Shown: positions 4,601 through 60,189 of the stretch, piece by piece | Layout of the letters: the number at the start of each line of letters is the position of its first letter | Position numbering within the stretch: the stretch's first letter is position 1 | Source of the DNA: Yuukianura sp. NJ FZ-2021 | Taxonomy: Eukaryota | Reading direction: 5' to 3' | Length of the DNA stretch: 64,000 nucleotides | NCBI GenBank assembly: GCA_046563655.1 | Contig: CM102285.1 | Location: 11,408,001 to 11,472,000, forward strand | The notes under the pieces: generated by a model | The model's input: only the letters and a program-made list of their open reading frames with translations | Told to the model about the DNA's origin: nothing | Database searches by the model: none | Made by a program: the position numbers and the translations under genes

Positions 4601-7600
4601 GATGAGAAGAGATTAAATTAAGGTTCTGTGAATAATGGAGTGTTTGTTTATGCAGAAGCTGTTAAGTACGATGAGCTCTCCACTTTCATTTGAAATTTTG
4701 CGCAACAGCAGTCTCCCCGATTTCGGTGCCCGGAGATGTGAAGATTACATAAAGTAAAAGAAAATGGAAAAGAAAGTTATGATATTTTCTGTTACATTTT
4801 CGTTGTTGTTGGTTCCTTCCATGCAGGAAGCCTATTATCTGAATTAAGGCTTATTACGCAAAGGAAATTGGAGGACTGGAGCTTTTTGCCTAGAAACGAG
4901 CCATAGTCTTTCTCTACTGTAAAAGAAATGAGGCGACTACCGCCTTCCGTTTCCATGAATCCCGAAACTTTCTCTGATTTTTCTTAGTCATTTGGACTGG
5001 AAGAGACAGATTACTTACTTTACTTCCAAATATGAGGCAGAGAAGAAGTGTCATCGTGAGCTGAACGTGGCAGAAGAAGATTATGTAGAGTAAATCAGGG
5101 TTGGGTGGTGACTGGAGAAACAGCCTATGGAACAAAAATGACAAAATTAGTTCATAAACTTTAGAAAAAGAAAAAGCGATTTTCCATTTTTGAAAAATTC
5201 TGGTCCAAAAAACAAGAGTCATCATCATTAAGCAACCACACTTTCACTGTTTTTTTTTACTTTCTCTGCAGTTTTAACCACTTATTTTTTGCAATTTCAT
5301 CTTCTAGCAAGCTCAGGCTCAGCAAAAATAGGGAAAAAAGTAAGGTAGACTTTAATCCCACAGGTCGTTTAGAAGTGGCATTTCTTAATGGAGATGGATT
5401 TTCTTCAAATGAATTAGAAAACCCTGTTCGAAGCAGGAAAAGTAACTTGAGAAAAAACTTCAAATTCTGAGTTGAACACAACCTAGATCTCATCTTTTTC
5501 TCATTTCTCTCACGAATGTTAAAAGAGAAAACAAATTGGCCTAATTTGCAATGACGAAAAAAATATCAAGAAAAAAAAGTATTGTCTGTTCTACCCTTGT
5601 AATTGACTATTGAAAGTGGAAATTTGATTATCTTCAAAAATTAATGAAATATGAATATTAAAAGGATTGAATTTCTTGATATGACCTAGTTTTTTTGAAA
5701 AAAAAAATGCTAAAACTCACATGGAAATGTTGAGAAAGAGCGACAGAAGAAATTCGTTGTAGATTGCTAGAGAGATGAATTTACTTTCATTGAATTCTGA
5801 CGGAGCCTTGCGGACGACAATACAGAGACGAATTCCCCAGACGAGAAAGGAGAGTTCCACTGGAAGTAAACAAAAAGAAAATAATGAGATCATTAAGCCG
5901 TCTCTCTTGCTTTCACTTTTCAAACAAACTTTTTAGTTCAGCCGTTCTATTTGAACAAGCCACTGGACACTTATTTGGAGGCGAAATTTCACATCTAAGC
6001 AAAATAAGCACTAATTTTTCAAAAATAAAATAGAGAGAAAGTTTTGCTCTCAGAGATAATTAAAAACCTACGTCTCAACCCTTCTTCCAACGATCATTTT
6101 TCAGAAATTCTCAAAAGCTGATTGTTTTTTCAATGTTTTTCAGCATTTCATTGTAATTGAAGTTCTAAAATGAAATGTGGTTTCCCTCTAACCCACATAA
6201 TTTCTAAAGCCGTTTGCTTTTTGTGTAAAGTTTATCCACTTCCCAAAAATTTGACTAACCCTGTGGTGAAAGTTCTAACAATAAGTTCCTTTTGGGCAAC
6301 GAACAAAGTCACTTTGGCATAATTAATCAGAGCCAATTTTCAACTGTCCAATACTGCTGTCAAGTGAAATTAAAATGACGACAAGGACGAACGATAGTCA
6401 AATAATGTCCTTGGGCTTGACAAGAAAAGTATGTCTAGCTCGATAACGTGCTACGACTGAGCTCAATTGAGCTCAGAAATAATTAAAAAATGGAAGATTT
6501 CCTTCTGCGTGTCTTCTCTGATTCATCAACATGGGGATGAAGCAGACGTTTTCTCAGTCAAATGGGAGTATTCATAAGACAACCAAAAAAAGTGCTTTCT
6601 CTTCGCTTTTTTTCTCTCCTGGAAAATACTTTCGTTTCCCACAACTTTTTTGTCCAAATACTAAAAAAATTCGGAAGAACCTTTGCAAGAAAAAAAAATT
6701 AAGGTAAACCTTAACAAACTATCTATACCTAACTCTGAGCTTTCTGTTAGCGAAACTGACGAAGAGTTTTCTGTTAGGTATGGCTATATTACTGGAAAAT
6801 TCGACAAAAAATTCTGACTTTTTTAAACTGTATTTCTTTTTACAAATTTTTTTTGATCTTCCGTTTACGAATATCTGGAGAAACGAGCTCAACTCCTGCA
6901 ATAATCTGGTTAAATTTTTAAAGTGATTGAAATAACCTACAAGAAATCAAAGTTTAACTATTTATGAACGCATGATCACAAGAAAATCCCATTTCTGACA
7001 TTCAGAAATGGAAAGAGTATGGCGTGAGCATAGTAATTTGTTTTTTGTATTTGAACTACAACTTTCATGTCGCCCAGAACCTAAATAAGAGAAAAACGGA
7101 AAGTATGATTTATATTTTGTGAACTGGTGGTCGGCAAATGCGACAGGTATGAGTTTATTAAATAAAAAGTGAGCGTGGAATGGCCCAACATTCGTTCTTT
7201 TTGGCAAAAAGAAAGATTTGGCCCGAAGGAAGTGATTTAGACGTGGAATTCCTTATGAGCCCAAATTCTTATTTCCCAGCAGGGTACACAAATCTCATTT
7301 CTCATACGGCTTTCCATTTATCAAAGAGAAAAATTCTAGGTACGTTCGTAACTTGTAAGAGAAATCAAGAATTTCTGTTTTCCCTCTTTTTTCAACGTCT
7401 GTCTACGTGGGTAAAGTTGTTACTAAAGCAATTGGCACAGATAGTTCCATAGGTTGTATCAATCTGTCCAAAGAGAAAACTTATTTCAAAAAGCAGAGTT
7501 TGAACCTAAACTTTCTCTTTTCACGGCAAAGTACTACGTTAACTCCCCTGAACGTCCGAAATTTTAATTTACTGCTTGCCAGAATTACATAAACTTTCCA

Positions 7601-10600
7601 CCGTCCCACCAGACTTTTTTTTTTGGTTGAAACTTTTCGGCCCGATGTTTTCAAATCATAAATACTGCATTGAATGGGATAACATGTTGCTAAAAGCTGA
7701 ACCAAGGAAATAGGCTAAAAAATTCCTGGATTTATTCTTTTGGGAAAAGCAAAACCCTTCAGAAACTAACAGAATTCAGTTTACAAAAGTCAAAAAATAT
7801 TTATCAGATAGAGCCACTTCATTTGCTCTCGCTTCAATCGCTTGGGGATTCACTTTTTCCAGCAATAAAATTTTAATCGAAAAAACTTCCCCTAAACAAT
7901 CCTAAAGATTACATAGAAGAAAAATGGGCCTGGCGCCGAGGGCAGGGGATGTTTTTATCCATGTAAAGATTAGAAAGAGAAAGTTCTGGAGCAGATGCAT
8001 GGAGCATCTTCAACTGTCAGAGAGCAGACACTCGAATCACTGTGGAATTTGCAGTGGTCCTCATCTGATATTCAAGTCTATGGCTATCAAGACTTTTTTC
8101 GAGATTGAATTTCCCATTTTCCCGCGAAAGAGAAAAAAAGAACAGGAGGTAACGCACGGCATTTAGAAGAGAGAACTGGCCTACAGGAGATTTCTTTTTG
8201 TGCCTGTTTGATCCATACATGCATGAGCGTGTGAGCGGAAACAGGAAAAGGCCTAGCGTTCAACTTTCAGGGAAAGTGTTAACAATTTCTATACAAGAAA
8301 AATCTAATGTGAGTGAAAGCCTTTCCAAAAAAAATGGAATAAATTGGAAATACTTCAGACTGTTCAAAATCTATAGGAAAATCTTCTTGCATGAAAATTT
8401 ATTTCGGTAGATTAGCCTATTCACTGCAAACGACAACTATAAGAACGTACCAGTCCAATTTCCTGATCTTATTTTTTTTGACAAGCTGTACATCCTATTT
8501 CAAACACTTCCTTCTAGATTCCCTTTTTTCAAAAATTGGAAGGAAACAGATAGAAACTGAAAATTTTTTGCACGAAATTGCACAATCTAGATCACAGAAA
8601 CGCAACGTCAAGAGACTAGGAAGAGAGAAAGCAAGCCGTCCGTGACTCTAAACAAAAATTCAAAAAAGTGGAAGCTGGAAGGGTCTTTAATATTCATTAT
8701 TGAAATCTAAGAAAATTTCAGTTTCACTCGTTCTGTAAAAAAAAAAAATTCATGTCAATAGTATTTAAAACAAATCAACGCCTTTAGACACTGAAGAGGG
8801 AAAAACGGCTTTTGAAAAGTGAAAGTGTTTTGGCCGAGTGAAAACGCACATGATACGCTTTTCACTTTTCCCCGACAACCTTTAAACTTCACACAGTTTT
8901 TTCCCAAGGTTTCGTCATTACTCCATTTGCTTCTCCACGACTACCTCCCTACTTCCCTGGTTTTCTTTTCACTAAAAGTTTACTGGTCTCAAGGGATACA
9001 TTATGATCCTCTTCCTCCTCTGGATCCTTTTAGAAGGCCATTTCTAGAATCCTAGAAGAAATCTAGGAAACTACAAAATCCTGCATCTAGCACAACTAAA
9101 ACTCTTTTGTGTCCCTGGGAAAGGGGTCATTCAATTCGATTTAGTCTTGAGCCACAAATGAATCTTAACATCGGAGTCAATGGGATGACCCAAAAGTAAA
9201 AGTCAAAGCTTTCTACACCCATCCCAAACAACCATACATTTCACAAAGAAGTGCTTCGTGAAAACGATTACCAGAATGCTGGTCTACGAGAAGTACTTCA
9301 GGCGCTTTTACTCACAACAACAACAAAACAAACACCAAAAAGCTAGCAATTTTCGTCCTAAAATGGTTAACTTTAAGTTGAGGGAAAAACAAAAACATTC
9401 GCTCTAGAAAGTAAAAAAAACATTTTGTAACCTGAAATAACTTTTATTGAGGGAATTTCACATTTCTAGAGCCGCCTCTAACGTAAAGCGATAGGAATTC
9501 ATTCAGCGATAATTCACACCAAATAAATTACCAAATACAGTTTGTGTGTAGTATCTCAAACCATGAAAGAGCTTATTATTTATTGGAAACCTTTGAGTCT
9601 TCAAAGAACACGCAATTAGAGAAAACTAAGAAAATCTTTTGCGTTTGCCTCTCTGGTTCTGTTTTGCAGTAGGTTGATATTTTGCTCTTGCAGCAATTAC
9701 ACACCAAACCAAGTCCTAAACATTATCGTTAACATTTACAAGACGTTAAATGTGAAAAGGTCAAAAGAAACAGCATTATAGTAAAACTTTACAAGGTATC
9801 TAATTTCCCACAAACCAGAATTAAGCTTCTTTGAAAACCCCCCAAGTTCTGAAATAGAATACCGCTGAGTGGGATGCTTTATGTAATATCAAAACTATTT
9901 TAGGAAATAGAAATATGAGAAAGCAGATTTTGGTTTTACATATTTTTTTTTCTTTTGATCCACCTTTTACTCACAATAAGTAGGATCTCGGATCAATTTT
10001 AACCAAAGTGAAAGCACATTTTGTCTGAAGAACCACGGACTTCAAAAGAATTGTAATATGTAAATGGAAAAAAGAGTAAGTTGCTTAACATAACTTAAAA
10101 AAAAACTAATTCGGGCTTCGTTTTACAGAACAGAACACTGAAAAGAAAAGGAACAAATATATCGTAAAAACTGGGAAATAATTGACCCAGTTTTTGAAAT
10201 TGAAATTGATTAATTGAATTTTAAGAAACTTATTCGTGAGGCTGCTTTCGTACAAACAAACCGTCCTGCAATGTGTAAGTCAACGTAAGAATTCAATATT
10301 ATGTTGAGCCAAGTTGCTGAGTTCTTGAGAAGCTTCTTGAATCAAAGATGTATCTGATTTGATTGGGTCTAATCCGATTACTTTTCCATTATAAGTTACT
10401 TGTTTCCGTGCGTAGTTTCTCAATTCGTATTAGCTACTTTCTTTCAAATACACAGAGTGAAAGGCTAAGTTGGGAAACAGAAAAGAAACGAAATTGAAAA
10501 AAGTGAGGGAAAATATTAAATTCATTTTCCTTTCCTTTCTGAATATTGGTTCTTTCCACATAACTATCCTATCAAATCCACAAACGTTGTATCCTCCTTT

Positions 10601-13600
10601 ATATTGCTCGTAGTTTTTCAATTCTTGAGATAAAAGACGTATCAGACACTAGATTTAAAAAGCGTTAAATCCGTTTAAACCTTTCGAAGCATGAATAATT
10701 CGAGAAAGTAACGAAATGCCTCTCACAGAGTTCTTAGAAATTTTCAGCTCGCAATTCTTTAGAACTTTCAGTACCAATTTTCTAAACAAATTTTACAAAA
10801 ATTTAATAAAAGAACTGGAGTGTTTTTGTTAATCTCTTCTCAAGGACGAAAAAAAAACTTTTAGTGGTTGATTAAAAATTTTGTGGAAGAAAAAGTAACC
10901 ATAATCCTCCCATCATAATTTAAGCCTAATCTTTAGCACTCATTCTTCCTTAGACAGAAAGCTTAGGGGAAAACTTGAGAATTCATTAGTTGAGCCACTT
11001 CGACTCTCGACTCTTTCAACTGCAAAAGACAGTGAAGATTTTCAAAATTTAAATTTCGCAGAAACTTAAAAAAAAACGCAAAGAGAAAAGAGTGAAAGTT
11101 TTTAGTCCCTCCTTGTAAAAAGTTCAATTAAAATCACTCCCTAATCCGTCCTTTTAAGTATCCATTTGGTTACAGTCGTAAAGCGTTTTTCGCTATAATT
11201 TTAAGTCTCTTTAGTGCTCCCAGTTTCTCCTTTCCTAAATGTTAGGATACACAACTACCACTTTACCTTTTCACTACTTTCACTTTTAGAGAAAAATAAT
11301 ATTTCCATAAAAAGGGCATTAGGCAGTGTCACCTTAGTTTTTAAAATAATGGAAATCACGTTTTCCAACTCCATTATTGCCTCCCTAGGACTAATAAACG
11401 AGATTTCATTATTTCACTTTTTCCACTATCATTTCCCGCCTCACACTTCTTTAAGTTTTTCCTCTTTGAATTATGACTTCAAAATGTCTGCTTTCTCTTT
11501 TCTTAGTTTCCAGGAGAGAAAAAAAGTAATCCTAAGTAATTTTTTGTCTGTTGAATCTGAGTTACAAAACTCATTTTGGCATAGGTATTACGAAAAGAGT
11601 AATGTGAAAATGAAAAATGAATGAAGGGATCATTTTTAAAGCCTTCTTTTACAAAGTCTTTCTTTTCTCTTTTCTCTTCTCTTCATTGGCCCTAATGGAA
11701 ATGATAAGTAAAGCACTTTAAATTTGTCATGTTTATCTTTCCCCTTGGCCTGCCACTTTTTCATTGTATAATACTTTCACCGTGTCTTTACGTTTCTTTA
11801 TCACTATATCCCGTTGTTCTTTTTATCTTAAGTAAGCTCTTCTAACCCTCCGAAGGGAAGTGGAGCAGTTTTTTACTTGAACTTCCATTTAACCTAACTC
11901 AAAAAAAAGTATTCAAAAGCAATTGCAAGTGCAACAGCAAGCTGACAAATTTCTGACGGTAAGATTTCAGAGTGTGACGTCTTAAGACAAAATTTCGAAA
12001 GTTTCATAACTTTCCCAGTTAGTACTAAGAAGTTGTAAGTGCCAAAAGTTGTGCTGAACCGTAGTATTTATATGTAAAAGAGAGTAATGAAATAATTTGG
12101 TGACTTACTAATTGTAAAAGAGTGATCCCACCAATCGCTGATGCAAAGCCAGGCTTTGAGGTTATTATCGGCAGTGTAGTGGACGACAGACACGGGCGGA
12201 GACACGAGCGTTCGAATGACCAGAAGAGCCGTAAACATCCCCACAATCATTCCAAGTCTCTTCATCAAGTCCAGGTCAGTAATTTTAACTGCCTTTGCTG
12301 ATCTCACGCGGAAGATTACTGAGATCCTGAAATGTAAAATGAAGTAGAGCAAAAGAAATGAATGGGCAAACAACGCCCACTCCAAAATGCAAGCGAAAAC
12401 TAATCCTAGTCCATTTACTTCCAATCCCACCCCTTCTTCTTTGTATGCAAACTCTATTAAAGCCGTATGGATTTCAAAGCTCCAAAGAAAACAAAATCTG
12501 AGCCTTAGAGCTTACCGCCATGTTTTCAGCATAAGTGCTCCGTAGGCCAGAGAAAAGCCAATTTCTCGGAGCCACACTCGCATCGTGCAGCTAATTATTG
12601 ATGGAATAGGATACATCACCAAAATCTGAAAGGAAAAAAAGTTGTCCTTCTTAAGTCCAGCCTCAAAACCTACTCTACAATTCTATTTCGGGTACCTAAA
12701 ATCAATGCGGTAGAATTTTGAAATGAGAAAAAAATTTGAGCTCAACAAAACGAAAAACTCACAAAAAATTTCAAACTCATAGTGTTTGAAAGAGTTGCAT
12801 TTAAAAAAAGACGCTTTGTTTCAGAAGTGTAGCACTAACGAAGTTGAATAGAAAAATAGTGCCGAGTTAGCTTGTTTCATGCATGCATAAAAAGGTGGAA
12901 AAAGTAGAAGAGAAAAGTCTCTTGAGTATTAAACTTGAAGAACAACAGAATGAATTGAAGCTTACCGTACAGTAGGTAAAGAATGCTCCCAGAACTATAA
13001 ATCCCAACAAAACAGGACTTGCCGCTCGAATCACCTGAAATAAAAACACAATTCCGGTTTAAAACGATGCATTTTTTAACAACTTACATTTGAATCAAAA
13101 TCCCTTTCCCAAAATTGAATTATGAAAAGAAAGTTAAAAAAAAACTCTGAGTCTGCATAGGTTGCATTCGGCCTAAACTTTGCAAAAAGTAAAACACACT
13201 CTCTCTTGTTTAAGTAAAACATTGAATTGATTTCTCCTTCTCATTTTGGATGGGAGAAAGATGGATTAAGGAATTTAAGCCGAGTGTCACAGAGCATTTA
13301 TTGAGCTCTGTCCAATAGTAAATAGAAGCTGAAAGGAACTGGGTTTGTCAAAGTGAAAGTTGTGGTGAGTAGAAAACAGGCGGAAATTAGAAAGTGAATA
13401 GGAGGAAACTCCTTTGAATTGTTGGGAATGGCTCTTTTGAATCTTTGGAAGTGGGATTAATCATCCTGAAATAGACATCTTCAGAGTGCTTTCCATTCCA
13501 TTTTCTCTTCTCTCCACCTAAGAATGACACTTAAGACACTTTCATCCTTTCGATTGAGCTTCCTATTACTCAAGGAGTTGTAAACCACATAAAGACTTAT

Positions 13601-16600
13601 CAGATACCAAAAGTACTTGGGTTTACCTTGACCTCTGCGTACTTCCAAGTGAAAAGTCCTACAATCGGAAGCATTAAAATAATGACGATTTGGATGATGA
13701 GGATGGCCGATCTCATGAGCCAGTTTAAGGAGACGACGCAGGGCTTGTCGTCAACGCAGTTATCACAGCCGTAAGGACAGAGAAGACATTCAAAAGCACC
13801 GGGCTCACTGTACCGGGACGGTCGGCCCTGCAAACGAGGTTAACAAATTATTTCATCAGTTGTGTAGATGAATTACTTCAATTTATATGACCAAAAACCT
13901 CGAAAGAAAAATACACCGAACGAAATGTAATTTTGTATTAATCCGAAAACCCGAAATAGAGCGAAAGAGCAGGAAATCTGAACCAGTTGGATATGAAAAG
14001 TTTCTCCGACATTTGCCGCAAGGTACTCTGCGAACCCGTAATTGTTACTTGTGCCTTAGGTTATACAAACGCTACATTATCTCATTTCAAACCATAACAA
14101 AAAGAAAGTACTTTGTTGACAGTTTTGAAAGTGAAAGTCTTACCATGAATTTGTTTTCATATTCTTCTTCCAGAAGAGACCCGTTGAAGTACTTGAGTTG
14201 CGAGGTTACATTTGGGAAATAGAATCCATCCTTACAGACGCAATGGTAACTTCCTCTACGAAAACCCAGGCGCTTTACAGGAACACACTGAAAAATGAAA
14301 TAGGAAACCAGTTACAACACATCCGTTTTAAAGGATTATATTCTCAACACAGACACTTTTTATTTCGAATCAGGCAAATGGGAGAATCACTTTAAAACTG
14401 TCAAGTTAAGCCACAGGTATTTACTTTTACTTTTCAATTTTATCCACTTCTGTTTATCCACAACCAAAACTTTCTAGGCAAAAAGAAACATAAGAATCGG
14501 AGTTTTTAAACATATTCAATTTCAAAAGACTGTGGAGAATTTGATGAAAGCGGTTCCTTTCAAAATTGAATTTTCTCCATTTCCGACTTACGCAATGATA
14601 GAAGTGATGTAATATATACAGAAATTTTTGACATGCGAAAATTACGAAAGATTACGCAAATTTGAAATTTGAAACGTGTCAAGCACAATCCGCAGTGAAA
14701 CTTATTGAATTACTTATTGCTGCTGCCCTGCACACTAAACTCAGTATCCTGCATACTGTACTTTTGTTGCGCACTCAGTTTAGTATGCACAATACTGAGG
14801 TTAGTTTCCTGCAAAGCAATTGTAAAGGCGGGTAATAAATTTCGGAATTTTTGGAATTCACGAAAAAAAAGTTTTCTCTAACTTTCCATTTATTGCTTAA
14901 AATGTTGAGAATTTCTCGTACAGTAAGCAGTGGAAGTCTCGACGGTAATGAATTTCGGAAATGATAATGAATTGGAACTGCCGTACTAAGTCTTCATGTT
15001 TGCTCACAACTAAATTATATCTGGCGGCCAGAAGATAGAAATGAAGTGATCTTTAATTACAGGTAGCCTGGTGTAGACTGATTTCCCTCGGCTGTCTAAA
15101 AATGTAATTAAAACTTTCTCCTACTCTCTTTAAACATTTCTAGCTTCTCCCTAGCTGCGAGTTTTTTCTCTCCTAGAATTTTTCCCACTTTCCAAGTCAG
15201 TAAATTTTGAAAAAAAGTTTTCAATAACTTAGTAAAAGCAAGGTTTGTAAATTATAAAGCAGCTGACTAGTGCAAACAGAATTTCCGAAATGGGAAAAAC
15301 TTTAAAATCGCTGAAGCGTTGTTTTGTCTATTGGTATTCGTTCGTTGTTAACCAAAAAACTTTAGTCGTTCCAGAAGCCTTCATTAGGAGCAAACGCGGC
15401 GCGTAGTTAAACACGAAAAACTTTATCAATCGATTTTATTGTCTCTCGTAGTTCGACTTTAGATTTAAAATTAAAATTAAATTAAAGTTTGAAATTCAAC
15501 TCAGAGCTCGTCTTTATGAAATTCTATAACCTAAATTCCTGTGTTTCTGGCAATTTACAAATTAAAGAAAAAGTGGATTAGTTCGCGCGCTTTTGGATGA
15601 ATTGAATTTCGAAATTAAAATATTTTTGGGAAAGTGAAGAAAAGTCTTTGAGTTTGGGCATTGTAATAAACAAGGAAGAGTGAAATGACAAGGTGAAAGT
15701 GAGTGAGGTAATAAAGTGCCATTCTTCATCAGGATTTTTGTAAGGATCGGTACAAGGTTTAATATGACAGACGACAGATAAGCACTTTCTTCCAAGCTTT
15801 TAGCAGGAGGATGAGAAGATGATGGAAAGGTCAAGCCAGGGTCAACTGAAAAACGTGGTTTGGCTTCCAAACACTTTTTTAAGCTTTCTCCAAACATCAG
15901 CATTCCTTTTGAAAAGCATGCAGGAAGCAGAGCGGAGAATGAAAAAAAGCAATATCATTCCACTCATATTTCATCTCCTGTGAAATTGTTTTAGAAATCG
16001 ACGATAATAGATTTATGAAACTCGTGGGAATTTGGACGCTTGTGTTTGAAATTTAATTTTGCAACTGAATTTATAACATTAATTTAGCACAAAGCAAAAA
16101 AAAGTCTGATTGATAGTAAAAACTTGTGCTACGCACGTCGAAAAAACAAAACACTTTTGTGTTACTCATTTTTTCAAACCTTATTTAAAATATCAATTTT
16201 GAAATCAGATCTACGAAGGTCAAGGGACAAGTTCAAACCGAATTGTTTAAAATTCAAAGGACACACGATTTAGTAGATAAAGTGTGTCGGGAAAGTTTTA
16301 AATTGCAGTTAAAATGTGTAAATGAATCAGAAAGTCATTAGGTGGAAATTACCTCGCATTAGGTCTAATCTCTAGCTTATGCTAACAAGTTTCCCTCTAA
16401 GTTAAATACTCCAACTCCTTAAAAGACGCTTTCTAGAACTCATAACAAATAAGAACATTGTTTTAACCAACATTTCTAAACAACATTTAAGACACTAAAC
16501 TCTAAGATCTCAATTATCCAGACAATGGCCCTTACTTTGATCGTCTTCGTGACAATGGTGGGAGTGGTACTTGGGGACGTATCATGTAAGTATGATCCGT

Positions 16601-19600
16601 CCCTTAAGTCCGTGGGTACTTGGGCCAAGTGCGACTACTCCACTTGTCTCCGCAAGGATGAATCCTATACTAACAACTGCTTGTCCTACTGCATCAGTGA
16701 TCAGAGAGAAGGATACTGGAGTGGTTATTGCTGGTCAAATGGATACTGCTACTGCGAGAAGAATTATCGAGATGAAACTGTTTCTGACACCAAATGTGAC
16801 CCTACGACTGGTTACGTTATGGATCAAAATGGCGGTTACTTGAACTATGGTTGCCAACTCTGGTGTAGTCAAGGCGCCTACAGACCCAACTATGGCCAAT
16901 TTGACACTGGCTACTGCAACATCGAGAACTACTGCGTCTGTCAAGATCGAAGATACCGTGACATGACGGATCTTGAAAAAAGTTCGGGATATTACGCGCT
17001 CTATCCCTTCTACGGACCACTTGTGACACCGTACACCGCTTCCTCCATTGACCAGTACGTCAATGGTCAATATGATCTGAACGGTCAATACATTGACCCA
17101 TACAATACCCAATATGCAGTATGAAATTCAATGCAGAAAATTTTAGTCCATTTCAAATTCAAGTTTTAGAAATTCTTTAAAAAAGTAGATTTTTTTTTGG
17201 CAAAATTATGGCACCAAAAGGATGTTTGTATCAACTGTTAGAGTTGAGTTAGATCGTATTCAATTCCAATAAAATTGAAATTTCAAAAAAGCCTAATTTG
17301 AATTTTGTTACGTTCGTTACATTTTTTTTTGGAATCGAAAATTCAAAAAACTAACTCTTCGAACCACCATTTTCAAAATCTTTTCTCAGAGAATAGAAAA
17401 TAATGCCGAAACTAGTGTATAAGTATTTGCGCAAAATGTTCCAAGTCTCAAGTTTTCTTTGTAACTACGTTGAATTTTGTACTACAACATACTCTTTTCT
17501 GAGATTCTGAAAAGTGAGCTCCACTTGAAACAAGATACCCTGCATATGTATTCTGAAATGTGATACAAATGGTTTAGTACACTCTCTTGTGAAGGATCAG
17601 TGCAAATTGTAAGGTAGGTTTGCTATGATCTTCCTGCAAAAGTAACCATGTCACTCCATTTGAATTCTCTCCTTTCTCCCCTTTCACTTCAAATATTTCC
17701 CTAGCAGTTGAATTGACTTGACATTGAGAGTTCTCACACTCTGCTGCTTAGCTGGACTCAATTTCAGCTTAAAAGGACAACAATCCATAGTCTCTGTCCA
17801 TTCGGCTGGACAGGTGACGTTTCTCGTATGGATTTTCATTACAACCAAGTCAAAAGGCTAACTATTCAGTTCTGCCTTTCATTTCACCCCTCAAAGTAAC
17901 AGTTTCACAAAGAAACTCTAAAAATATGAATTCAATTTCAAAGTAATCAAAATTCTAAGTCTAAGTTACTACCTACGTACCAACTTTAGTTGGATCAGTT
18001 CTGCTGTATTTTAAAAATTTGAACGTTTTTACTTTAAAAAAAATCCTCACGAAATGACAATGAAGTGACCATGTCATTTGTCAATTTCTCAATTTGACAA
18101 GAACAAATTTCAAATAGAGAGAGCACTCTGGAATTTCAATAGCAATCTAAAGTGGATACGGACAGTACTTTTGATTCACTTGATTTTGGAAAATGGGACA
18201 ACTGTTTTACAATTGTTTGGAAAAAATGAAAAATACTTTTTTGCCATCACACATTTAGCAATCGCTGAAAGAGAAAGTGAGTACTATCAGTGAAAGCTGT
18301 CACTTTCCTTATGGACATATTTCTCATGAAGTGCAAAGACTCGCTCCGAAAATGCGAAATATGACAGTTAGTAGAGCAACAATTTTTTTTTCGTTCTGAG
18401 AAAGTGACCATCATGCTCTCACACTTTCACAATGAATGAGAACTGCTTTCATTTTCCATTATAGACACTCACTTACCTTTGTCGTAGCACTTTTGCACTT
18501 GTCAGAAGCAGCAAAAATGTTCAGCTCCGTTGAATTTTCGGGAAGTGGACATTGATCTATGTCAACTCGCCTCAAGTCAATATCAATTCCACTTGTGCCC
18601 CTGTAAAAGTAAAAAGAAGTAGAAAACATTAGCCTTCAGAAACCAGTCATGAAGCCAATATTCCAAAATACGCCTAGATTCTACTAGCAGTAGATGCTTA
18701 GAACTCAATCCAATTCAAATCTATCATCGTCACTTTCTCTTTTGCCTTAAAGGCTGTTGTCCTCCAAATCGATTCAATACTTCAACTTTTTATCTCCCTT
18801 ACGACCCAACACCAAAACCTTTTCTTTATTCCTAGAAAGCTCCAATATTTCACATCTCTGCATGATATTTGATATGCTCTTGGAAAATTTCAAGAACCAA
18901 AACAGAAAGTTGTTTTTTTTCCCTAAACTAACAAAAGCTAACCCAACAAAAAGTCAGGCTAGAGACCAACAGACAGGGTTCGTTTGTTATTGAAAGTCGA
19001 AAGTCCTGGATTCCCTGTCAAAAATAGGCATTTTTCTAAAGCTACGCATTTATATGGTAAACTGTGTAATTCAATCTTCAGAGTCAAATAACCAGAAAAA
19101 CTGGAAACTGGAAAAGTTTGCGAAGTATAAGTGGAAATGTATGTTCGTAGGAAATGACAAAATATTTTGCAGAGCGGAAACCGTCGTCCTCCTGACTCTT
19201 CCTCTTCTGTCAAATTCAATAGGATGCCTTTAAGTAAAGTTTTTTGAAGTCTTCCACTTTTTTTTTGTTAACTTTTTATTTTTGAGAAAAGAGAAACAGA
19301 CAGGAAGATAAAAGAGAAAGTTGGTGAGAGTGGGAACAGACAAGGGTATTTGAACGGGTGCGACTTATTTGCCTTTTCCACTTTATTGTTTGCCTTCGGA
19401 AGACAGAATTTTTGCGCAAGAAGAATAAAAAATACCAAGGAGAAAGTTTTTTTTTTTTTAGAGATGTTCTTCCTTCCTTACTTTTGTTACTGGGAGGAAG
19501 TAAATCGATAGTTTGAAAGTTAATGGAATCTAAATGGTATCTTAAATCCCACTTTTTTCAATCAATCCGTTAGAAGCTTTGTTCCTACCAATTTTCTTGA

Positions 19601-22600
19601 AAAACAGGGGAAAACAGAACATATGGAAAGAAATGGAAATTCATGTAAGGTTAGTTTTCTGGAAAGAAAAACTTTCTCTGAAAAGTCTACTTTGCCAGAA
19701 AGTAAAAAAAAATAGACCGTAATGGAATAGACAGAATAGAAAGTGGGCGGAATGGCATTTGTATTTTAAGTAATTATTATGTTGGTTCAAATTGAGTTTT
19801 CAATTGCGCTCTGTCGGAGCGAAAAAAACGATTTTGAAAAACTTTTTCTGTTGTTACCAAGAAAGTTCTTATTCCGAAAATAGACCATGTAAGTAATTCG
19901 ATTCGAATTTGTAAATGTAAAATGAGCTTTCCAAGACATTTACTTTTATCTTCACAAAGTGGGTTGTTAGCCTTAATTTCCAAGGCTTTGACCTCACAAA
20001 CTCAATTTTATCTTGACCTTTCTATTTCATCTCAGCAAAGGTCAGGCTTTTTTTACACTACTTTTTCACAAACTTGTTAATGTCTAAATTTATCACACTA
20101 CCATTCTGAAATCGGAACTTCATTGAAGCGTCTGTGTCACTTATCCAAAAGCCCTGTTTCCTATTGTGCCACATCGAAGTAATGGAAGTGACAGGAAGAT
20201 TGGTTCTGCTTTTCCTGCTAATTGGAACATTTACACCTAAGGTGTCCAAAGGACAAGCCAATCGTCATCTCCCTGGAGATGTAAGTGTCAGTAGAAGTCA
20301 GCGGGAAGGTTCTGGAAGGAAGGCTGCTCAAGTCCCTCTATTGACAAAGCTCCATCGACACAACTTCGACAAAGTCCTTGGACGAAATCAGTTCTTTGTC
20401 GTAGAATTCTTTGACCCCGACTGTGGAGCCTGTCAAGCCTTTGCCCCTACTTTTGTCAAAATGGCTCAAATCCTCAGAGACTATGGACATACGAAGGACA
20501 TCCGACTGGGCAAACTGAATGCTGTTCAAAATTGGAATTTGGCTCGTACCTACGGCGTCAAATACGTTCCTACTATTATTCTATTTCAAAATGGACAACC
20601 ACTACAAACCTACTCTGGAAAAAGAGAAGCAATGACCATGGCAAGATGGGTTTACGACACTACAATTGCTCGTAGTAGGTACAACCTAGATTACAGAACA
20701 TAAAGCTGAAATTTTGAAATATTATGATTTTACACTTATTACATAAATTGAAAAAAGAAATGAAAATCTTGTATTATTTTAAGGTTTGAATTTTTAAAAA
20801 CTTCATGTTCCAAAATCGAGCTTATAAAAATATTGAATATCTAATGTCGATAAAAACACAAAAAACTATGAACAGGAGAAAACTAAATCTTAAACTTTCA
20901 TTTTTGTGACACTGTCCTTACTGTAGGCGAATTTTTTTTAATAAATTGCCACTAACCAATTTTGAATTACTTACAATACAACGCATGTAAAAATTTCAAA
21001 AACGTTGAAATTTGAGCCTCACCTTGACCTTAACCATACACAACGTCTACCAAGAAATCAATCACTGAAACTGGAGATAAAATAAAACTAATCGTAAGCC
21101 CTTGTTAATTTCAGTTTGATGCTCTTTGAACTCAAAGTGCAAATAATTTGAACAATTAACTTGAAAGAAGTTTCTTGTCGTGTCCTTACAGTAATCCTCT
21201 TTGCGTCTCGCAAAGTTCTTTTCTGTTTAATAAGATTCTTCCCTTCTCTTTGCATCAAACGCATCAAAAACACACAATTTCGAAATTAATCTTTGCACTT
21301 TCTTAACCAAAAAGAGGAGACGCTGATTCTACTTGCAAAATTCCTTTGTAAAAGATGCTCTGTACATTATTATTTTACTTACTCCTTTACAAATCCTGCA
21401 CAAAATTTCAAGTCCAAACGGGATGTTGTCAATTTAAAATTCGAATTAGTATGAAGAAAGAGCTCACTTTGGAACCTAATTTTGGAAGCCTTTTTAGGTG
21501 TTTTTTTTTGCTTCCATTGCCGCACTTATGGAAAAACACTTTCTCCATTATGATCGATAAACAAAATAAAATTGATATAAAATTGAAAATATCTACGTTA
21601 ACGGAGTATGAGGCAACTGGAATTTTTTTCGAACTTGAAAAAAAAAACCCTATTCTATAAAGAAACAAAATGTAACTGCGTAACTTATGTTCGGTTAGCA
21701 TAACATAACCTATCCAACAAAGGAGACTCCAACTCAAAGGAATTTCTTTTCAAGACAAGGCTTTGAACAACTTTTAATTTCCTTGTGGGATTTCAACTTT
21801 GGACTTTCATCCTTTTGAATAAGTAATCTACAAGGACTTCTGTTCTGGATAAATATAAGAGAAAGCACGAAGAAAGTTTAGGTTTTAAGGATATTCCATG
21901 CCGTGCGTTTCTGTCTGGGTTCATGTCCAATTTTTGATATCGAAAAAAGTGAAAGTTCTCTCCTTTTAGTAATATCCTGGGGATTCTCATTCCTAAGGAA
22001 TCCAAGAACTGATTCTAAAAGTCCTTACTATTATTTCCAATACCAAATAACATGTTCTCATCTCTCTCCTTTTCGGGTTTCACCAAGGAAGAAACTTTGT
22101 TAACTTTTCTTTCATCAAAAAATATAATGTCTCTCCAGTACTTTGGGGTCTAATGGGATCTTCTAGTACACATCCGTAACAACGTCCTCCTCCAAATGTG
22201 ATCACATACTCCAATTTTCAAGTTTTTTTTGTACTCTTTTCAGAACAAGTAGAAAGAACAAAACTTTGGACCTAGTTTTCTAGGAAATGAAATTGGCGAG
22301 GCACCACCGCAGGCGGGAAAGTGTGCAATTTCTGTTTTTCACAGAAAAAAATAACTAATTTCGGTATGCAGGGTATCAAAGCTACCGCCTCCTAAGCAAA
22401 TTCATGAAAATCCAGTAACCTACAAGCCAGCAACTTTTGACCAAGCCAGTCTAGTAAAAAAAAATAACTGAACCCAGCTTTTGCCTTTTCCAAATTTAAT
22501 AAAATCAAAATTTGAAAGTTGTAATGCTCAAAAGAGAAAGTGAAATTAGACTTTCACCTAAGGCAAAAATGTAGCATCTCTTTGAAGTGAACCAAATATT

Positions 22601-25600
22601 TGGAATAACCGCGGGCGATTTAGTTAAGAAGCCTTTTCCTAACGAATAGTTATTATCGATTAGTATCGAATAGTTACTCCCTCCAACTTCAATTTTTTTC
22701 GATACTGGATCTCATAAATGAAATTATTGTTTATAACCTAACTTTACACTATCATAACCTCGGCAAAGTCTTTGGTTTGTGTTAATAGAATTCAGAAGTG
22801 GAGTTTCTGACGACTGCATGTTTTCTATAGGCCCAGGTAGTAGGTTTAAGAACCCAAGGTGGGTGTGTTGTATTAATTTAAATGTTGCCTCATTTCCACT
22901 AAAGAGAAAGTCGTTGAGTCAAGATAGACTGAGATAAGTGGCTTTCTCCGTTCTTTTTCTTTGCGAATTGTGAGGGAATGACCAAAGAAAAAGGAATGGA
23001 ACTGACAGAGGGAACCCATATTGTGCTGGGGGTTGCTAAGTATTTACTTTTCATTTGAGTCCTTTGAAAATGCTTTCTCTTTGTAGAAACCAGAAATGAA
23101 TTCTACTGACTTTGAGGAAAGGGATACTTCATAAATAAGTTGATCAAAGAATGAAGTGATAAGATATCCGTGACTTGGCTTAAGAAACAAGTGGAGGGTT
23201 GTACGTAGAAAGAGAAAGCAGTACATCATGATTTCAACAAAGTTTTTGAAATTATCTTTCAAATGGACCCGGATGTATTTCAAATTGTTTCACAGCACGT
23301 AACGTAGAAACAAAATTTCACGTTAACAGTCAACAGCACGCTCTACCTTGCTTCCTTAGTCACTCGCCCTACAAAATTATCACCTTTCCTGTCACCGCAA
23401 GAAGTTTGTGTGCTCAGCAGTTACTATAAAAATTTTCAAAAAGAAAAGTTCCAAAAAAACTTACTTGAAAATGTAGGTGTTGTTTTTGAAGTCAAAAAAA
23501 GGAACTGCGTAAGTCATCATCCAAATGTTGCCTCCTCCGCAGTCAAAGTAGGGTTTACTCCATCTTCCATCTTGATAAGTTACGTTGAGTATTATTTCTT
23601 CCGTCATTTCCGTATGATTGTCATTTATCGTATAAGAATGGAAGCCTAAAAAAGAAAAAAAAATTGAATTATGGAAGTGAAAGTTTATTTTATTTTAATG
23701 TAAATTGAAGCAAATAACTTTAAATTTGAATTCGAGAGCTCACAGCAGTTTTCCATTTAATAGAAACTTTTCAATTATGCATAGTGCTGAACAAGACAAA
23801 CTTCAGTTTTTCTAAAAACAAATAAACCCAAGAACAAAATAAATAGCTCTATACGCTTCCGAATTTAAATTACAAATTGTTTGCCTTGATGGAGAAAGCG
23901 TTCCTGCTAGAAAAAATTAATTTGAAAAATGTATTAAAAATTGAATCTAGGTTAACAACCTAGACTCAAATTTACATTGATTCGGCATAGGTAACCTACA
24001 CGTAAATCTTATTTGTAACCAAAAATAGAACCCTGTAACCAATATCAGATGGTTAACGATGGGAAGGGTTACAGGTGAAAGGTAACCGATGAATATGGTT
24101 CAATATTTGCGCACTTTTTACACATTTCCTTGACTCATAGTCAGTCCCAGTCCCATTATACCTCTACATTATTAATGTTCAACTGCTTTTCCGTTGTTTC
24201 ACCCCCGCAGGAAGAAAGCAAAGAGAAGGAAGAAAGTTGGATCATTTTGTGCCAACTTTGGTCGCTTAGGGGTCGATAGGAACTCTCTGGAGTCCAGCAG
24301 ACTGGAAGGAAATAATACATAGAAGAAAGTAGTTTTCACACGAGGAGAGAAGCAGCAGGATATCATAACGAGATTTGGCGGTATGACTGACAGCACGCCT
24401 TTTCTAAATCTAAAGAAAGGAAGTGGAACTTATTTTGGAGGGAAAAGCAGCATTTGCGGAACCTGTGAAGGAAACAAGGACTGCTCTGGAAACCTTTTCT
24501 GCTCCTACGGAGATTCCTTTGAAGTGATCCCAAGCGTGTAAATAAAGTAGAGAGGAAGAAAAGCTTTATTCCTTAGACACAAATTCTTTTGTTAAGAGGG
24601 CCAAGGGCCCCCTAAGACCCTAGCAAGAGGTGAGAGCCCTTACTTCCTTTACTACATAATAATTACGACTAATAGGCTAGGAGGAAACGGCTTCAACGCA
24701 TCCGTGGATCCTCCATTCACGTTACTCTTGCTAAAGCAATAGAGACAGCGTTGGTGCTGTTTTTATTTTGAACCCCACTTTCACCATTAGTATTCCTTTT
24801 CAGAAAATAAGTGGGAAGGAAAGACAAGAACATGGACAAACAACTTCAAAACTTTATGAATATTATAATAGAACAATTAAATAAACTATATCAACTCTAA
24901 GCTAAAGTCAACCAAAGAAAGAGAAAGTTCCAAAAGGAAACGGGGTAATTAGTTTTACACAGAATTAGACCTCTTAAGTTGTTTTGAACAAAAGCAAGTG
25001 ACCTTTGACCTCTGATCAATTTTTCTTCAAAATTAAACCAAAAATTCCAAATATTTTACCAATTATGAAACTTAAAAGATTGTAATGAAGACGAAGGAAC
25101 AACTCCGGGATCGGTTTTACTCGGGCCGAATATTAAGAAAATAAGTCGCTGGCGTTAAGTCGAAACGACAAAAGTGAAAGTGCGCGGAAGAAAGTCTAAG
25201 ACAAAAAATGTTCAAATGGTTCACAAAATTTTAGTAACTATAAAAATTTCTTCAAAGATTTCTGGAAACTCTGAAGCCTATAAACAAAAGGAAACGCAGT
25301 AAAACTGAATGATGTTACTAACTTTTTTTGATGCTGAAACCGAAAAGTTATGAAAAAGAGGACACTTTGGAACATGAAAAAATAAAAACTGAAGTGTGGG
25401 AAACAGAACTTCATATAGCTGTTTTGTTTACTGCTCGATAACCTTCCTGGAAACAAGACTCAGTGGATAATACCCACCCACTGAGAAATGTATGAGGATG
25501 AGGAATATAAATCCCTGAGTAAATAAAATGCGGAATTTCAAAATTACAAAAACCATGGGGGGAGATCAGTGTCCTAGCGGTGGATAATGAAAATCTCTCT

Positions 25601-28600
25601 TCCCACTGAACTCTAACCTGTTCCTTTTGTGTGGCTTTATATGAATGAACACGGAAAGGATTCTTCCTTCTAGCTATTTTCCCAAAAAATGAATAACTAT
25701 GGTCAACAAGTACTAGTCACTGGGACAAGACATGTGTCGACCCCGTTGTTCTCGGTTTACTGACCTTCGTGATTCGCTTGAAACGACTTTTATTAGAACA
25801 CTGCGACGTTGCGGTTTTCAATGTTTGATTTTGATACGCTGCTACCCTCCAAATCATAGGCAACACCTTTCAATCTTCTCATTTTCAAATCAAAACGGCA
25901 ATTTAAATTTGAAATTTATTGTTGCCTTTGGCAATATTTTTGTTTGCTCCTCATATTATTAGACCCACTGCTAAATGTTTGGGAAAGTTTTCCTAAACCT
26001 TCCTCGAAACGCCGTAAAACTTTGTTTTGTAGCAGGATCCAATCTAGACTGCATTTTGAGTGTGACAAAGACGGCTTATAGACCTTAGATGATTAGAAGT
26101 CTGAAAACTTTGCTAACAATAATTTTGTTACTACATTGGAAGAAAAATTAACACACAAATATTTAGAAACTTGCGAACTAGAGTGGAACGATAACCTGAG
26201 AGGCTGCTGAAGAGAATACTGAACAAATAAAAATCAACAGTAACTGTTTTCTCCTTTAAGTGCGGCAAACAAATTCAAGCACGTTTCGCTTGCAGTTAGA
26301 ACAAAAACTGAAGAAAAGCTTTTCACAAGTTATACTTTCTTTTCCATGCTCTGTTGAACTCCTTACGCCTCCATAGTTTACTATTTACTTCAAGGAAGTA
26401 TGGACTCAAACTAGCTTCATCTTCAACCGACCACGATGCAACAAAAACTGCTGTCTTTCCATTTTTTGGCCTAGATTCAATATTTTCTGCCAAGGAAAGT
26501 GTTTTTTTTAGCTCTTTTAAAAAAAAATCCAGTTCCTACGAAACAAAATTTCGAAACAAAATTCAAAAAACAAGAACTGCATACGAACGATAAGTTTTCT
26601 CGCCACGTCTCTGAATCTCTCTCTTTTTAAAGTTTAGTAAATCTCCTGTTTCTTGGTATTCTTTCTATTCCTCACCAAATACGATTTCCTGCGTTTTCTT
26701 TTTTTTTATAATAAAGAAAAAAGAAATTCTAGGATAAAACTTTGTTATTCAGAGCATCGTCGATTGTGCTCCTTCAACGACAGAGAAATGGAACGATGAG
26801 TTTCGAAAGTATAAAATTTCAGAAAAAAAAAAACTTTTCCTTTGGAATGGTTCAGTTAAAATCTGAAGGTAATAGAGAAAGTCCGTTTTCCAGAAAGCTT
26901 AAAGATACTATTATATTCAACAAAAAAGTAGCATTCGTGATCTTCCAGACGCCGAAGGAGCTTTCTCCATTCGTTCGAAGTCTTCAAATCTTTGTTCGTG
27001 TGTTCATCTTTTAATCAAACTTGAACCCAAAATGCGGTTATCTTCTAAAGTAAAGTTACGTGACCAGAATTTATTTTGATTCATCGCAAAGAATGAACCT
27101 TTTACCTGTTTGTCTAGTTTTCACAAAAAAAAAAGTAAAAAGAGAAAATGAAAAAGAAGAAACAATTTAGAACTGTTGTTTTCTTTTCACTGAATTTTTC
27201 TAAGGAACTCATGAAATTATAACACGAAAATTGTAAGATGTTGATGTAATTTGGAAGTTGTAAGGACAATGTTTGACGGTGTAATCATCTTGTTACTTGT
27301 TTGCTCTGCTCTGATTTGAGCAGAACACGCCGAACCATGCTCAAACACACGTAATTACACTTTCTGGAAAACTAGTCAAGTTCTTAGTGAGGGATTGCCG
27401 AAATCTACAGAATTAGAAAGCGCACGGTTTCCTCCTCTCTCTTTTTTGGCCCGTGCAGTTTGATTAATGAGCCTCTAACTTTTCTTTTCTTTTCGTGAAA
27501 ATACTTCCTGAAATCCATAAAGTTTTCCTTACGCCTCTTTGGTGGGCGGTTAAGTTGGCCAAAAGCAAAGAGGACGTGAGCGTTGTAGCAAATAAGCAAT
27601 TTTGGAAAGCTTCATGGAAAAGAATGCAGAAAAGTGCTTAGTGCTTCCTGTCAACCATGCTCAAATTAAGGGCTCCAAGTCCCCTCCCATCTGATTTATG
27701 GACTACTAAGGGCTACTACCTATAACGCTTTTTGGTTGTGTCCAGAAAGCAAAGGAAAGTTAAAAGCCAAAATTGAAGAAACTAAAGACAGTCCCTTCTT
27801 TCACATAAACTTTTGGATTTGGAACCTTACACTAAAAGTTTGCTACTTTTGCTCAGGTCAGTACGACATCAGCAGGGAAAACCCAAAACCAAACTGAGAT
27901 TTTACTACCAAAATCCAATGCGTTTTTTTCTTACTTTCACTTTTTACGTTTTCCCTAGAGTCTGCTGAACGAAAAAGTCTGGCTCAGCTTTCACCACATC
28001 CCCAAACGAATGGGGTCGTAACATATTGGAGTTGGTCGTTTTCCTTATTGATTTATGGACAGAAGCACCTCGACTTAACAGTAGGGTGATAGATAGAGTT
28101 AGTAGAAACCTAGCTGGAGCTATGAATCTTACTCTAACAGACAGTGAGATCAATAGGCACGTCTTCTTTAAGACTTGTTTTGACTTATCAAAGTGAAAGC
28201 CCCAAGGAATTCGGGTTCAGGTTTTTGATAAACAAAAACTAAACTTCCTTCTCCTAAATATCTTATTTCCAACTTCAAGATTTATCCAGAAAAAAAAATC
28301 TAGGCAAAATCATAAAAAATAGAAAGAGAAAGCTAACATTATTACATCAGACGTGATGCATCACTTCAAAAATACTAAGCCTTTTCGAGATTTATTGCTC
28401 GAATTTTGAAACGGTTTTTCAGAATTTATGAAATTTAGTGAAAAGGAAATATGAGAAGCTGTAGAGTTTTATTATTTCAAAAAAGAAATCTGGACTTTTT
28501 GAGTCTATTAAACGAGACAGAAAGGCAGGATTTCTCCTGGTTCCATAATCCCATTTTCTCATTGTTCGTATAATTGTGTCATTATTCTTAACGGGAATTC

Positions 28601-49500: not shown

Positions 49501-49839
49501 CTGGCCACCCCTTTCCGTGTGACAAGACTTTTTGCTCTCTCTTTGTACAAAACTACACGTTCCGTATTCTCTGGTCAGCCACAGCCTTACTACTTTCTAC
49601 CCGGATCAAATTCATTTACCGTATGACAGCTTATTTATAATTTGTTAGCTCTGTTTAGTTTCAGGGAACTCGAGTTTAAAATTCTCAGCACTTGATTTCC
49701 TTGTTCTAAACAAACCATTGGAACGATTACTGTTAAGTTAAATTACACTAAATTATTGAGTAATGGTAACTTTTTTATTATGGTCCTGCCAGAATTTCTG
49801 AAAAGTAAAAGTGATGTACTTCTATTCACGAATCTGGAG

Positions 49840-59600: not shown

Positions 59601-60189
59601 AGAGCAATCTAAGACTTTAATTAGGTCGATCGATATTTCACCATCACAGTTGCCCATTGTCCACCTTCGTGTTTTGAATTTTTCGCTCCTGGTCCCTGCA
59701 AGGTCATTGAGAATTGATCGTTTCATAAGAGTAAGATGAAATGTGTCTTTGACCCTGAAGTGGTCACGAATAGAGGAGAAAGCCTTTTGTTTTGCATCTA
59801 TCCGACACTTCTCAGTTTAAAAATGCCCGATTACCATCTCAAAGAATGGCAATAATTCTTGTGCTACAACTAGTAGAACGAACGAATAATCTCAATCGGT
59901 TTCAGTGTCGCGTAGGCTGGTGGTGAATAAGCACGCTCCGCGTTCTTATAGACTACTTGTTCAATTACTAAGTATGATTTGTGTTTGCGAATTCTGTGCC
60001 TATCATCGGGCCCTTGATGATCCGAACAATCCGATTGCGTTTTCAATCCCGGGGTTACCTCCTCCTCCCGGAGAAATTGAATTAGACTGGATACAACGAC
60101 CTCCGTCAAAGAAACAATGTGATTGTGATTGTTGCAGATTTTATTGTAATTGTTTGTCTTCTTTTTATAAGGCTAAGAGGATTGGGATA

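Follow-up and report, generated by a model that had tools for sequence, protein, structure and literature searches.

Introduction

Two described systems join a thioredoxin-type enzyme to a disulfide-rich secreted peptide, and they are among the closest precedents for the two small genes considered here, A and B, which lie within introns of a receptor gene in a 64,000-nucleotide stretch of the Yuukianura sp. NJ FZ-2021 genome (GCA_046563655.1, contig CM102285.1, positions 11,408,001 to 11,472,000; this whole stretch is called the window below). Gene A encodes a tandem defensin-fold precursor and gene B a basic protein with a single thioredoxin domain of PDI (protein disulfide isomerase) type. 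The first system is that of cone snails, where csPDI, a PDI-derived duplicate, is paired with the conotoxins; the available part of the source describes a multi-domain enzyme of the endoplasmic reticulum (ER) that keeps CGHC in two catalytic domains, has a b' domain, acts on many toxin substrates and is linked to them by gland expression (PMC6275033). B and A likewise combine a PDI-type protein with a disulfide-rich secreted one, although B has one domain, is apparently secreted and is tied to A by position only. The second is human, thioredoxin reduction being stated to activate beta-defensin 1 in the accessible text of PMC3806438. An extracellular thioredoxin acting on a defensin is also what one rival reading proposes for B and A. 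The human enzyme is an ordinary thioredoxin without a signal peptide, its substrate is a cationic beta-defensin of another superfamily, and genomic linkage is not known to be part of that case.

Gene A belongs instead with the cysteine-stabilised alpha-beta (CS-alpha-beta) superfamily of invertebrate and plant defensins, drosomycin, termicin and short scorpion peptides (PDB 6aty, 1myn, 1mm0, 2gl1). A bi-domain plant defensin, MtDef5, is reportedly known. The array is defined by CxxxC and CxC, a third cysteine pair and GxC (PMC5116183, in the portion available), its fold by a helix that packs against an antiparallel sheet of two strands, and the three Collembola defensins described in the available part of PMC10051947 are single-domain proteins of 63-72 amino acids, unlike the tandem A.

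With regard to genomic arrangement, 71% of Drosophila nested genes are antisense to their host; arthropod nested antisense genes are commonly small, fast-evolving, several per host and often of RNA-mediated origin, and the expression of host and nested genes tends to diverge (PMC5174743, as far as its available text goes). A and B resemble them in size, in strand and in sharing one host, with no difference in the arrangement itself. The co-orientation of A and B therefore adds little, because both are merely antisense to the host, as most Drosophila nested genes are.

An earlier note, made from the letters of the window, had seen in A and B a substrate/foldase or activator pair. The reading preferred here, with a probability of about 0.6, is that the two nested genes were acquired separately and that no dedicated link of enzyme to substrate joins their products.

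Two genes nested in a receptor gene

The host is a GPR158/179-like class C G-protein-coupled receptor (GPCR) gene (Table 1). Its exons 2 and 4 match PF22572 above the cut-off in a profile search and one open frame runs through the joined exons 2-8; at least one short exon may be missing from the map. According to splice-site and frame prediction, A lies inside intron 3 (14288-18476) and B inside intron 2 (18601-23464), both antisense to the host, and each is a whole gene within another gene's intron in these predicted structures. Both reading frames of the earlier note were found on the plus strand where it had placed them, with 3,057 bases between them (17125-20181) instead of its rounded 3 kb, and host exon 3 does separate them on the opposite strand, PF22572 being present in the neighbouring exons. 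The nine mapped introns total 31.2 kb, close to the 34 kb that had been estimated. The note had also taken A and B as the only two convincing nested genes of these introns: two host exons lead a codon-bias scan of all frames from 1.6 to 39.3 kb, A comes third and B fourth, and no further candidate exceeds a score of 8 outside the host exons, A and B, but the scan missed several short true host exons and short multi-exon nested genes could escape it. Host exon 1 has about 580 codons, and about 430 low-complexity Ser/Asp/Glu-rich residues precede the conserved extracellular region.

The two genes appear to be transcribed separately. A shared transcript across the antisense exon, which the earlier note had considered, is unlikely because each gene has its own poly(A) signal and B its own putative intron in the 5' untranslated region (5'-UTR). 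The description of both genes as intronless thus holds for their coding regions and probably not for the B transcript as a whole. Moreover, the regions upstream of A and B have no common sequence (score 40 versus a background of 38 +/- 7). A spliced A-B fusion was rejected: a strong phase-1 donor at 16586 fits the acceptor at 20035, but a stop codon at 20107-20109 precedes the B frame.

Table 1. Coordinates of the genes, exons and conserved elements discussed in the text (window positions)
Feature	Position	Strand	Basis or detail
Host gene, GPR158/179-like class C GPCR	1654..39269	-	splice-site scan, frame, PF22572
Host exon 1	37520-39269	-	
Host exon 2	23465-23645	-	splice-site scan
Host exon 3, separating A from B	18477-18600	-	strong splice sites
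Host exon 4	14144-14287	-	splice-site scan
Further host exons	13627-13827, 12966-13034, 12516-12625, 12109-12326	-	
Further host exons	5721-5859, 5019-5124, then 3' exons to 1654	-	
Gene A, secreted precursor of 199 residues with two CS-alpha-beta (defensin-fold) domains in tandem and 14 Cys	16525..17124	+	open reading frame, Cys pattern
A domain 1, residues 18-82	16576..16770	+	C36, C52xxxC56, G-Y-C69, C75xC77, extra C21 and C41
A domain 2, residues 83-145	16771..16959	+	C91, C110xxxC114, G-Y-C131, C137xC139
A C-terminal tail, 54 residues, Cys-free, 11 aromatic residues	16960..17121	+	
Poly(A) signal AATAAA of A, 144 bases past stop	17268..17273	+	
Putative 5'-UTR intron of B	19889 (donor)..20035 (acceptor)	+	
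Gene B, 173 residues: one thioredoxin domain of PDI-a type behind a signal peptide and a basic linker	20182..20703	+	
B active site D-C-G-A-C	20419-20433	+	
Poly(A) signal AATAAA of B, 237 bases past stop	20940..20945	+	
Non-coding block conserved with metagenome contig L040 (~2190-2530), order and strand relative to B kept	21845..22160		
Invariant 18-base core of the block	21975..21992	+	alignment with L040
kappaB-like match to GGGGATTYYY within the core	21979-21988	+	

Gene B, a probably secreted single-domain thioredoxin

The N-terminus of B is signal-like by a crude hydrophobicity rule; the same rule, rather than a dedicated predictor, supports the signal peptide that the earlier note had given to both proteins. 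B belongs to the thioredoxin superfamily (PF00085, 73.7 bits, cut-off 23.5, E 1.4e-20) and its closest solved-structure matches are a-domains of the PDI family. Its only two cysteines are those of CGAC and its mature isoelectric point (pI) is 10.1, in agreement with the basic CXXC protein first described. Searches covering proteins of 93-303 residues returned two orthologues of 170 and 171 amino acids, P0003 (44% identity) and P0005 (48%). The active sites of the three read DCGAC, ECGAC and ACPAC; C81, C84 and V129-P130 are invariant in all of them, the buried Glu and the cis-Pro motif are kept, the pI ranges from 10.1 to 11.3, and none of the three C-termini carries a KDEL-type ER-retention end. 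In a tree of 31 rows they form a long-branched clade (support 100/98), and the tree did not settle from which paralogue B arose. The family alignment leaves out P0006 and P0007, both of them ordinary thioredoxins. L040 is the one orthologue in a set of 80 metagenome loci for B; those of the rest that were inspected are ordinary PDIs.

Identity between B and P0003 at third codon positions is 0.39, near saturation. Both cysteines are nevertheless invariant, so that selection acts on B, which is probably a catalytic protein. The loss of the Trp that precedes the CxxC may lower or alter its activity, as the activity of human thioredoxin drops on loss of its active-site Trp (PMC11939457, in its available part).

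B has in common with the a-domain of PDIA1, PDIA4 and TXNDC5 the signal peptide, the thioredoxin fold, CxxC, the Glu of VEF and the cis-Pro. In B and its orthologues, by contrast, the Trp is replaced by D, E or A, CGHC by CGAC or CPAC and the VD-motif Asp by Asn; they have a single domain, a pI of 10-11 and no retention signal. The PDI of this genome has an intron within its a-domain and the coding region of B has none, which fits retroposition. B would most likely have arisen as a processed copy of a PDI-family gene, truncated to the part for the signal peptide and the first catalytic domain. Long resident in its intron, it would have turned into a basic oxidoreductase of dithiols and disulfides that is secreted and works extracellularly or late in the secretory path. 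The genome also encodes an ordinary PDI-family set, whose members we take from their motifs to be PDI, PDIA4/5/6-, TXNDC5-, ERp44- and TMX-like. Another divergent thioredoxin domain (CLPC) ends a long open frame at L022:958-1803 (G000:C6 ~4.005 Mb).

These features bear on the foldase reading, by which B would be a dedicated ER foldase for A in the manner of cone-snail csPDI and the conotoxins. The resemblance of B to PDI-family a-domains, the up to seven disulfides of A and the entry of both proteins into the secretory path speak for it. It fails, nevertheless, because of the anatomy of B: each of B, P0003 and P0005 has one domain, where PDI and csPDI are multi-domain with substrate-binding b/b' domains, the WCGHC of those foldases is DCGAC in B, with the possible cost of the missing Trp already mentioned, there is no KDEL-type end, and canonical PDIs are at hand in the genome. 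A role of this kind is thus very unlikely, and this half of the earlier proposal is set aside.

The position of gene B

The orthologue P0003 is encoded on L040, a metagenome contig of 2,692 bases that shares with the window a non-coding block located 3' of B. The block aligns with a score of 75-83, where the background mean is 28-30 (standard deviation 5-6, 424 window tiles) and the best of 300 shuffles reaches 50. In BLASTN the core alone falls within the range of the top tenth of shuffles, so the signal comes from the collinear pieces and not from the core by itself. As the block is common to the window and L040, a second species probably carries B at the corresponding site, and the alignment points to B being probably old in its position. 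The 18-base core occurs once in the genome. A coding role of the block was ruled out, the core having no synonymous change and the indels being off frame; Rfam gave no family at E <= 1 over 14200-23700, and the window holds no complement of the core at up to four mismatches. A possible plus-strand splice acceptor precedes the core in both species, and an intron placed like the 5'-UTR intron of B can be made out by eye at L040:660-755.

The apparent age of B in this position, together with the Cys-rich extracellular region of the host receptor, is compatible with B acting on the receptor, in which case it would have been retained in the intron for editing the disulfides of that region and A would be a bystander. 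L040, however, carries no host exon, and the expression of hosts and nested genes tends to diverge in the work already quoted (PMC5174743, in part). This is the most improbable of the readings considered.

Gene A, a probable tandem CS-alpha-beta precursor

The N-terminus of A is hydrophobic, its 14 cysteines and mature pI of 4.4 agree with the acidic protein of up to seven disulfides described at first, and the description can now be made more specific. Each of its two cysteine repeats, which are 31% identical, reads C...CxxxC...GYC-x5-CxC, domain 1 having an additional pair, so that both domains contain the CxxxC, the CxC, the third pair and the GxC of the CS-alpha-beta array. Models from a single sequence and from a two-row alignment (mean pLDDT confidence 57 and 65) give the element order helix then beta-hairpin. 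Domain 2 matches 6aty with Z 5.7 (root-mean-square deviation, rmsd, 0.8; 38 residues aligned) and domain 1 reaches a best Z of 3.6 (rmsd 1.6, 37 aligned), all nine of its matches being CS-alpha-beta chains; Z values so low are suggestive only, and the fold assignment is carried by the cysteine pattern. Foldseek returned nothing at E <= 0.001 for the two-domain model, and ribosomal-protein structure matches were discarded as stemming from the low-confidence first domain.

No Pfam family exceeds its cut-off over the whole protein, domain 1 remains under the cut-off of PF00304 (gamma-thionin; 13.6 against 25.1 bits), and a genome search with PF01097 (arthropod defensin) did not pick up the locus. 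No homologue of A was found among 12 candidates of 109-349 residues, 1.84 billion representatives yielded a single spurious repeat protein (P0004), 30 pattern matches in metagenome contigs gave no confirmed relative, and there was no relative among solved sequences and no usable Atlas match. A is single-copy in the 98.7-Mb genome, and a two-domain profile run over loci L121-L178 gave no relative of A besides A itself.

In contrast to the known CS-alpha-beta peptides, and to antimicrobial defensins with their cationic mature peptides, A consists of two tandem domains of net charge 0 (domain 1) and -3 (domain 2), is rich in Tyr and Trp, has the extra pair in domain 1 and ends in an acidic, Tyr-rich tail of charge -5, possibly a pro-peptide. 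Domain 1 ends in K-N-Y-R (K79-R82) and domain 2 in R-R-Y-R (R142-R145), basic ends that we take for possible convertase sites. A may accordingly be a precursor cut into two non-cationic peptides.

Several other loci of the genome carry defensin-like sequences. At L171:9059-9232 and L172:436-2443 (G000:C3 ~14.58 Mb) at least five clustered CS-alpha-beta-like exons apparently form tandem multi-domain defensin genes, several of them strongly cationic; repeated Cys-rich defensin-like modules occur at L175:4977-5207 (G000:C7 ~4.177 Mb) and at L127:1426-1806 on the minus strand (G000:C3 ~0.927 Mb), and there is one defensin-like exon at each of L170 and L173. The DNA pattern GYC...CxC is uninformative alone (83 matches versus 77 in the control).

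Are the two genes functionally linked?

The main alternative to separate acquisition, possible but doubtful in our estimate, is an extracellular immune redox pair in which A and B would be co-induced from a kappaB-like element and co-secreted, the basic B binding the acidic A and reducing or reshuffling its disulfides, so that A is switched on or off. It has the precedent of thioredoxin and human beta-defensin 1 (PMC3806438, in part) and would agree with the lack of a retention signal in all three B-family sequences. In its fullest form, held just as tentatively, it would be an NF-kappaB-inducible two-gene redox defence cassette in receptor introns, whose PDI-derived basic oxidoreductase switches an anionic double CS-alpha-beta peptide. 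That this oxidoreductase would belong to a new lineage-specific family of one-domain secreted proteins is put forward with the same reserve.

The regulatory argument comes from the conserved, genome-unique core, part of which fits GGGGATTYYY. PMC6626034 gives this sequence as the kappaB consensus for genes that respond to IMD, and the cecropin A1 site (PMC2831041) fits it too. A random sample of 200 kb of the genome has one match to the pattern and the window has two, against 1.1 expected for the window. Against its use as an immune element, the site is single, was noticed post hoc and lies 3' of B, about 5.4 kb from the start of A, while in Drosophila an immune enhancer has several sites for Relish and GATA close to the gene start (PMC12922788, in its available part); it may serve the host gene instead.

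Co-folding of A with B, a check that the earlier note had suggested, was carried out with residues 48-165 of B and 18-146 of A, both without alignment. The pair scored 0.53 (runs 0.53, 0.53 and 0.56), the runs having 68% or more of their contacts in common and the partner a pLDDT of no less than 68, and the three controls 0.00, 0.19 and 0.00, these being unrelated proteins, none of them a thioredoxin or Cys-rich; no interface is given. Among 78 solved complexes 51 pass the mark used, as do 2 of 108 mismatches; the eukaryotic counts are 39 of 65 solved complexes and 2 of 126 unrelated pairs. At scores up to 0.60, however, only 5 of the 78 complexes pass, together with all four passing mismatches (of 180). 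The score of the pair thus sits where mismatches also pass. Besides, solved thioredoxin-substrate complexes exist, so that memory is possible. Taken as weak support for binding, it nearly doubled the odds of a direct A-B link, from slim to still clearly below even.

The neighbourhoods of comparable genes were also surveyed, with a profile that detects B and all 19 other thioredoxin loci. No thioredoxin lies in the 10-kb stretch of any of 20 candidate defensin loci (5 of them motif-bearing), the nearest match to the five other defensin-like loci being 0.33-2.7 Mb away. Pairing of this kind is therefore no general rule in this genome, and it is also unusual. Word searches of open-access literature for secreted single-domain arthropod thioredoxins and multi-domain arthropod defensins brought up nothing on such a pair, from which absence from print is not implied.

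Several points weigh against the separate acquisition of the two genes. Apart from the co-folding score, these begin with the pairing itself, since at the 19 other thioredoxin loci neither a defensin motif nor a frame of at least 120 amino acids for a Cys-rich protein with a signal peptide is present (random stretches 0 of 20). For the narrow class of a defensin-like gene next to a thioredoxin, 0.008 pairs within 3.3 kb are expected by chance, a lower bound from the 20 thioredoxin-family and 6 defensin-like loci found; if 300-1000 disulfide-rich secreted genes are assumed, the expectation rises to 0.4-1.3, and the class was defined after the pair had been noticed among hundreds of scanned windows. 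Furthermore, B is the sole lineage-specific secreted thioredoxin found and it adjoins A, and the two proteins have opposite charges (pI 4.4 and 10.1). The missing homologues of A may merely reflect fast evolution, and L040, which ends 784 bases upstream of the start of B, is for that reason silent on A. On the other hand, acidic D78 and D80 stand beside the active site of B, no reductant system is known for B, and the other defensin-like genes lack a thioredoxin neighbour.

Separate acquisition thus remains the preferred explanation. A and B would have come independently into two adjacent introns of the large receptor gene. A, as a defence-type precursor that is either young or evolving fast, would be folded by the usual PDI/ERp set of the ER and probably cleaved after each domain at the basic sites into two neutral-to-acidic CS-alpha-beta peptides; such peptides would more likely bind a specific target, such as a fungal surface, a channel or an enzyme, than lyse membranes. 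Both genes may have local regulation in common, including immune induction, with no contact between their products.

Other features of the window and genome

Beyond the host gene, the window contains a single-exon bZIP protein of 431 amino acids with a C-terminal hydrophobic segment (46465-47760, plus strand), presumably CREB3-like, and a multi-exon minus-strand gene at about 48000-55500 with a PEP-utiliser mobile domain (PF00391), which we take to be of the PEP synthase/rifampicin phosphotransferase type, unusual for an animal. An EB1-like calponin-homology gene (59974-60984) and PEX13 (62426-63268) follow on the plus strand, with several short retained-frame introns. Elsewhere in the genome, a tandem repeat at L023, L038 (G000:C7 ~3.704 Mb) and L012 has long Cys/Ala/Val-rich open frames on its minus strand and is probably a non-coding minisatellite.

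Significance

On the preferred reading, two unannotated genes are gained from the locus. A codes for an anionic precursor with defensin-fold domains in tandem, and B belongs to a small group of PDI derivatives that are secreted, have one domain and a changed active site, and are kept in place together with a conserved non-coding element. This is useful but ordinary. If the immune redox reading were true, a truncated PDI copy would have been recruited to extracellular immunity, and an invertebrate defensin would be redox-switched by its own linked enzyme in a directly testable way, a mechanism described for human defensins with general thioredoxin; as a cassette, A and B would give an animal example of a defensin linked in the genome to its activator.

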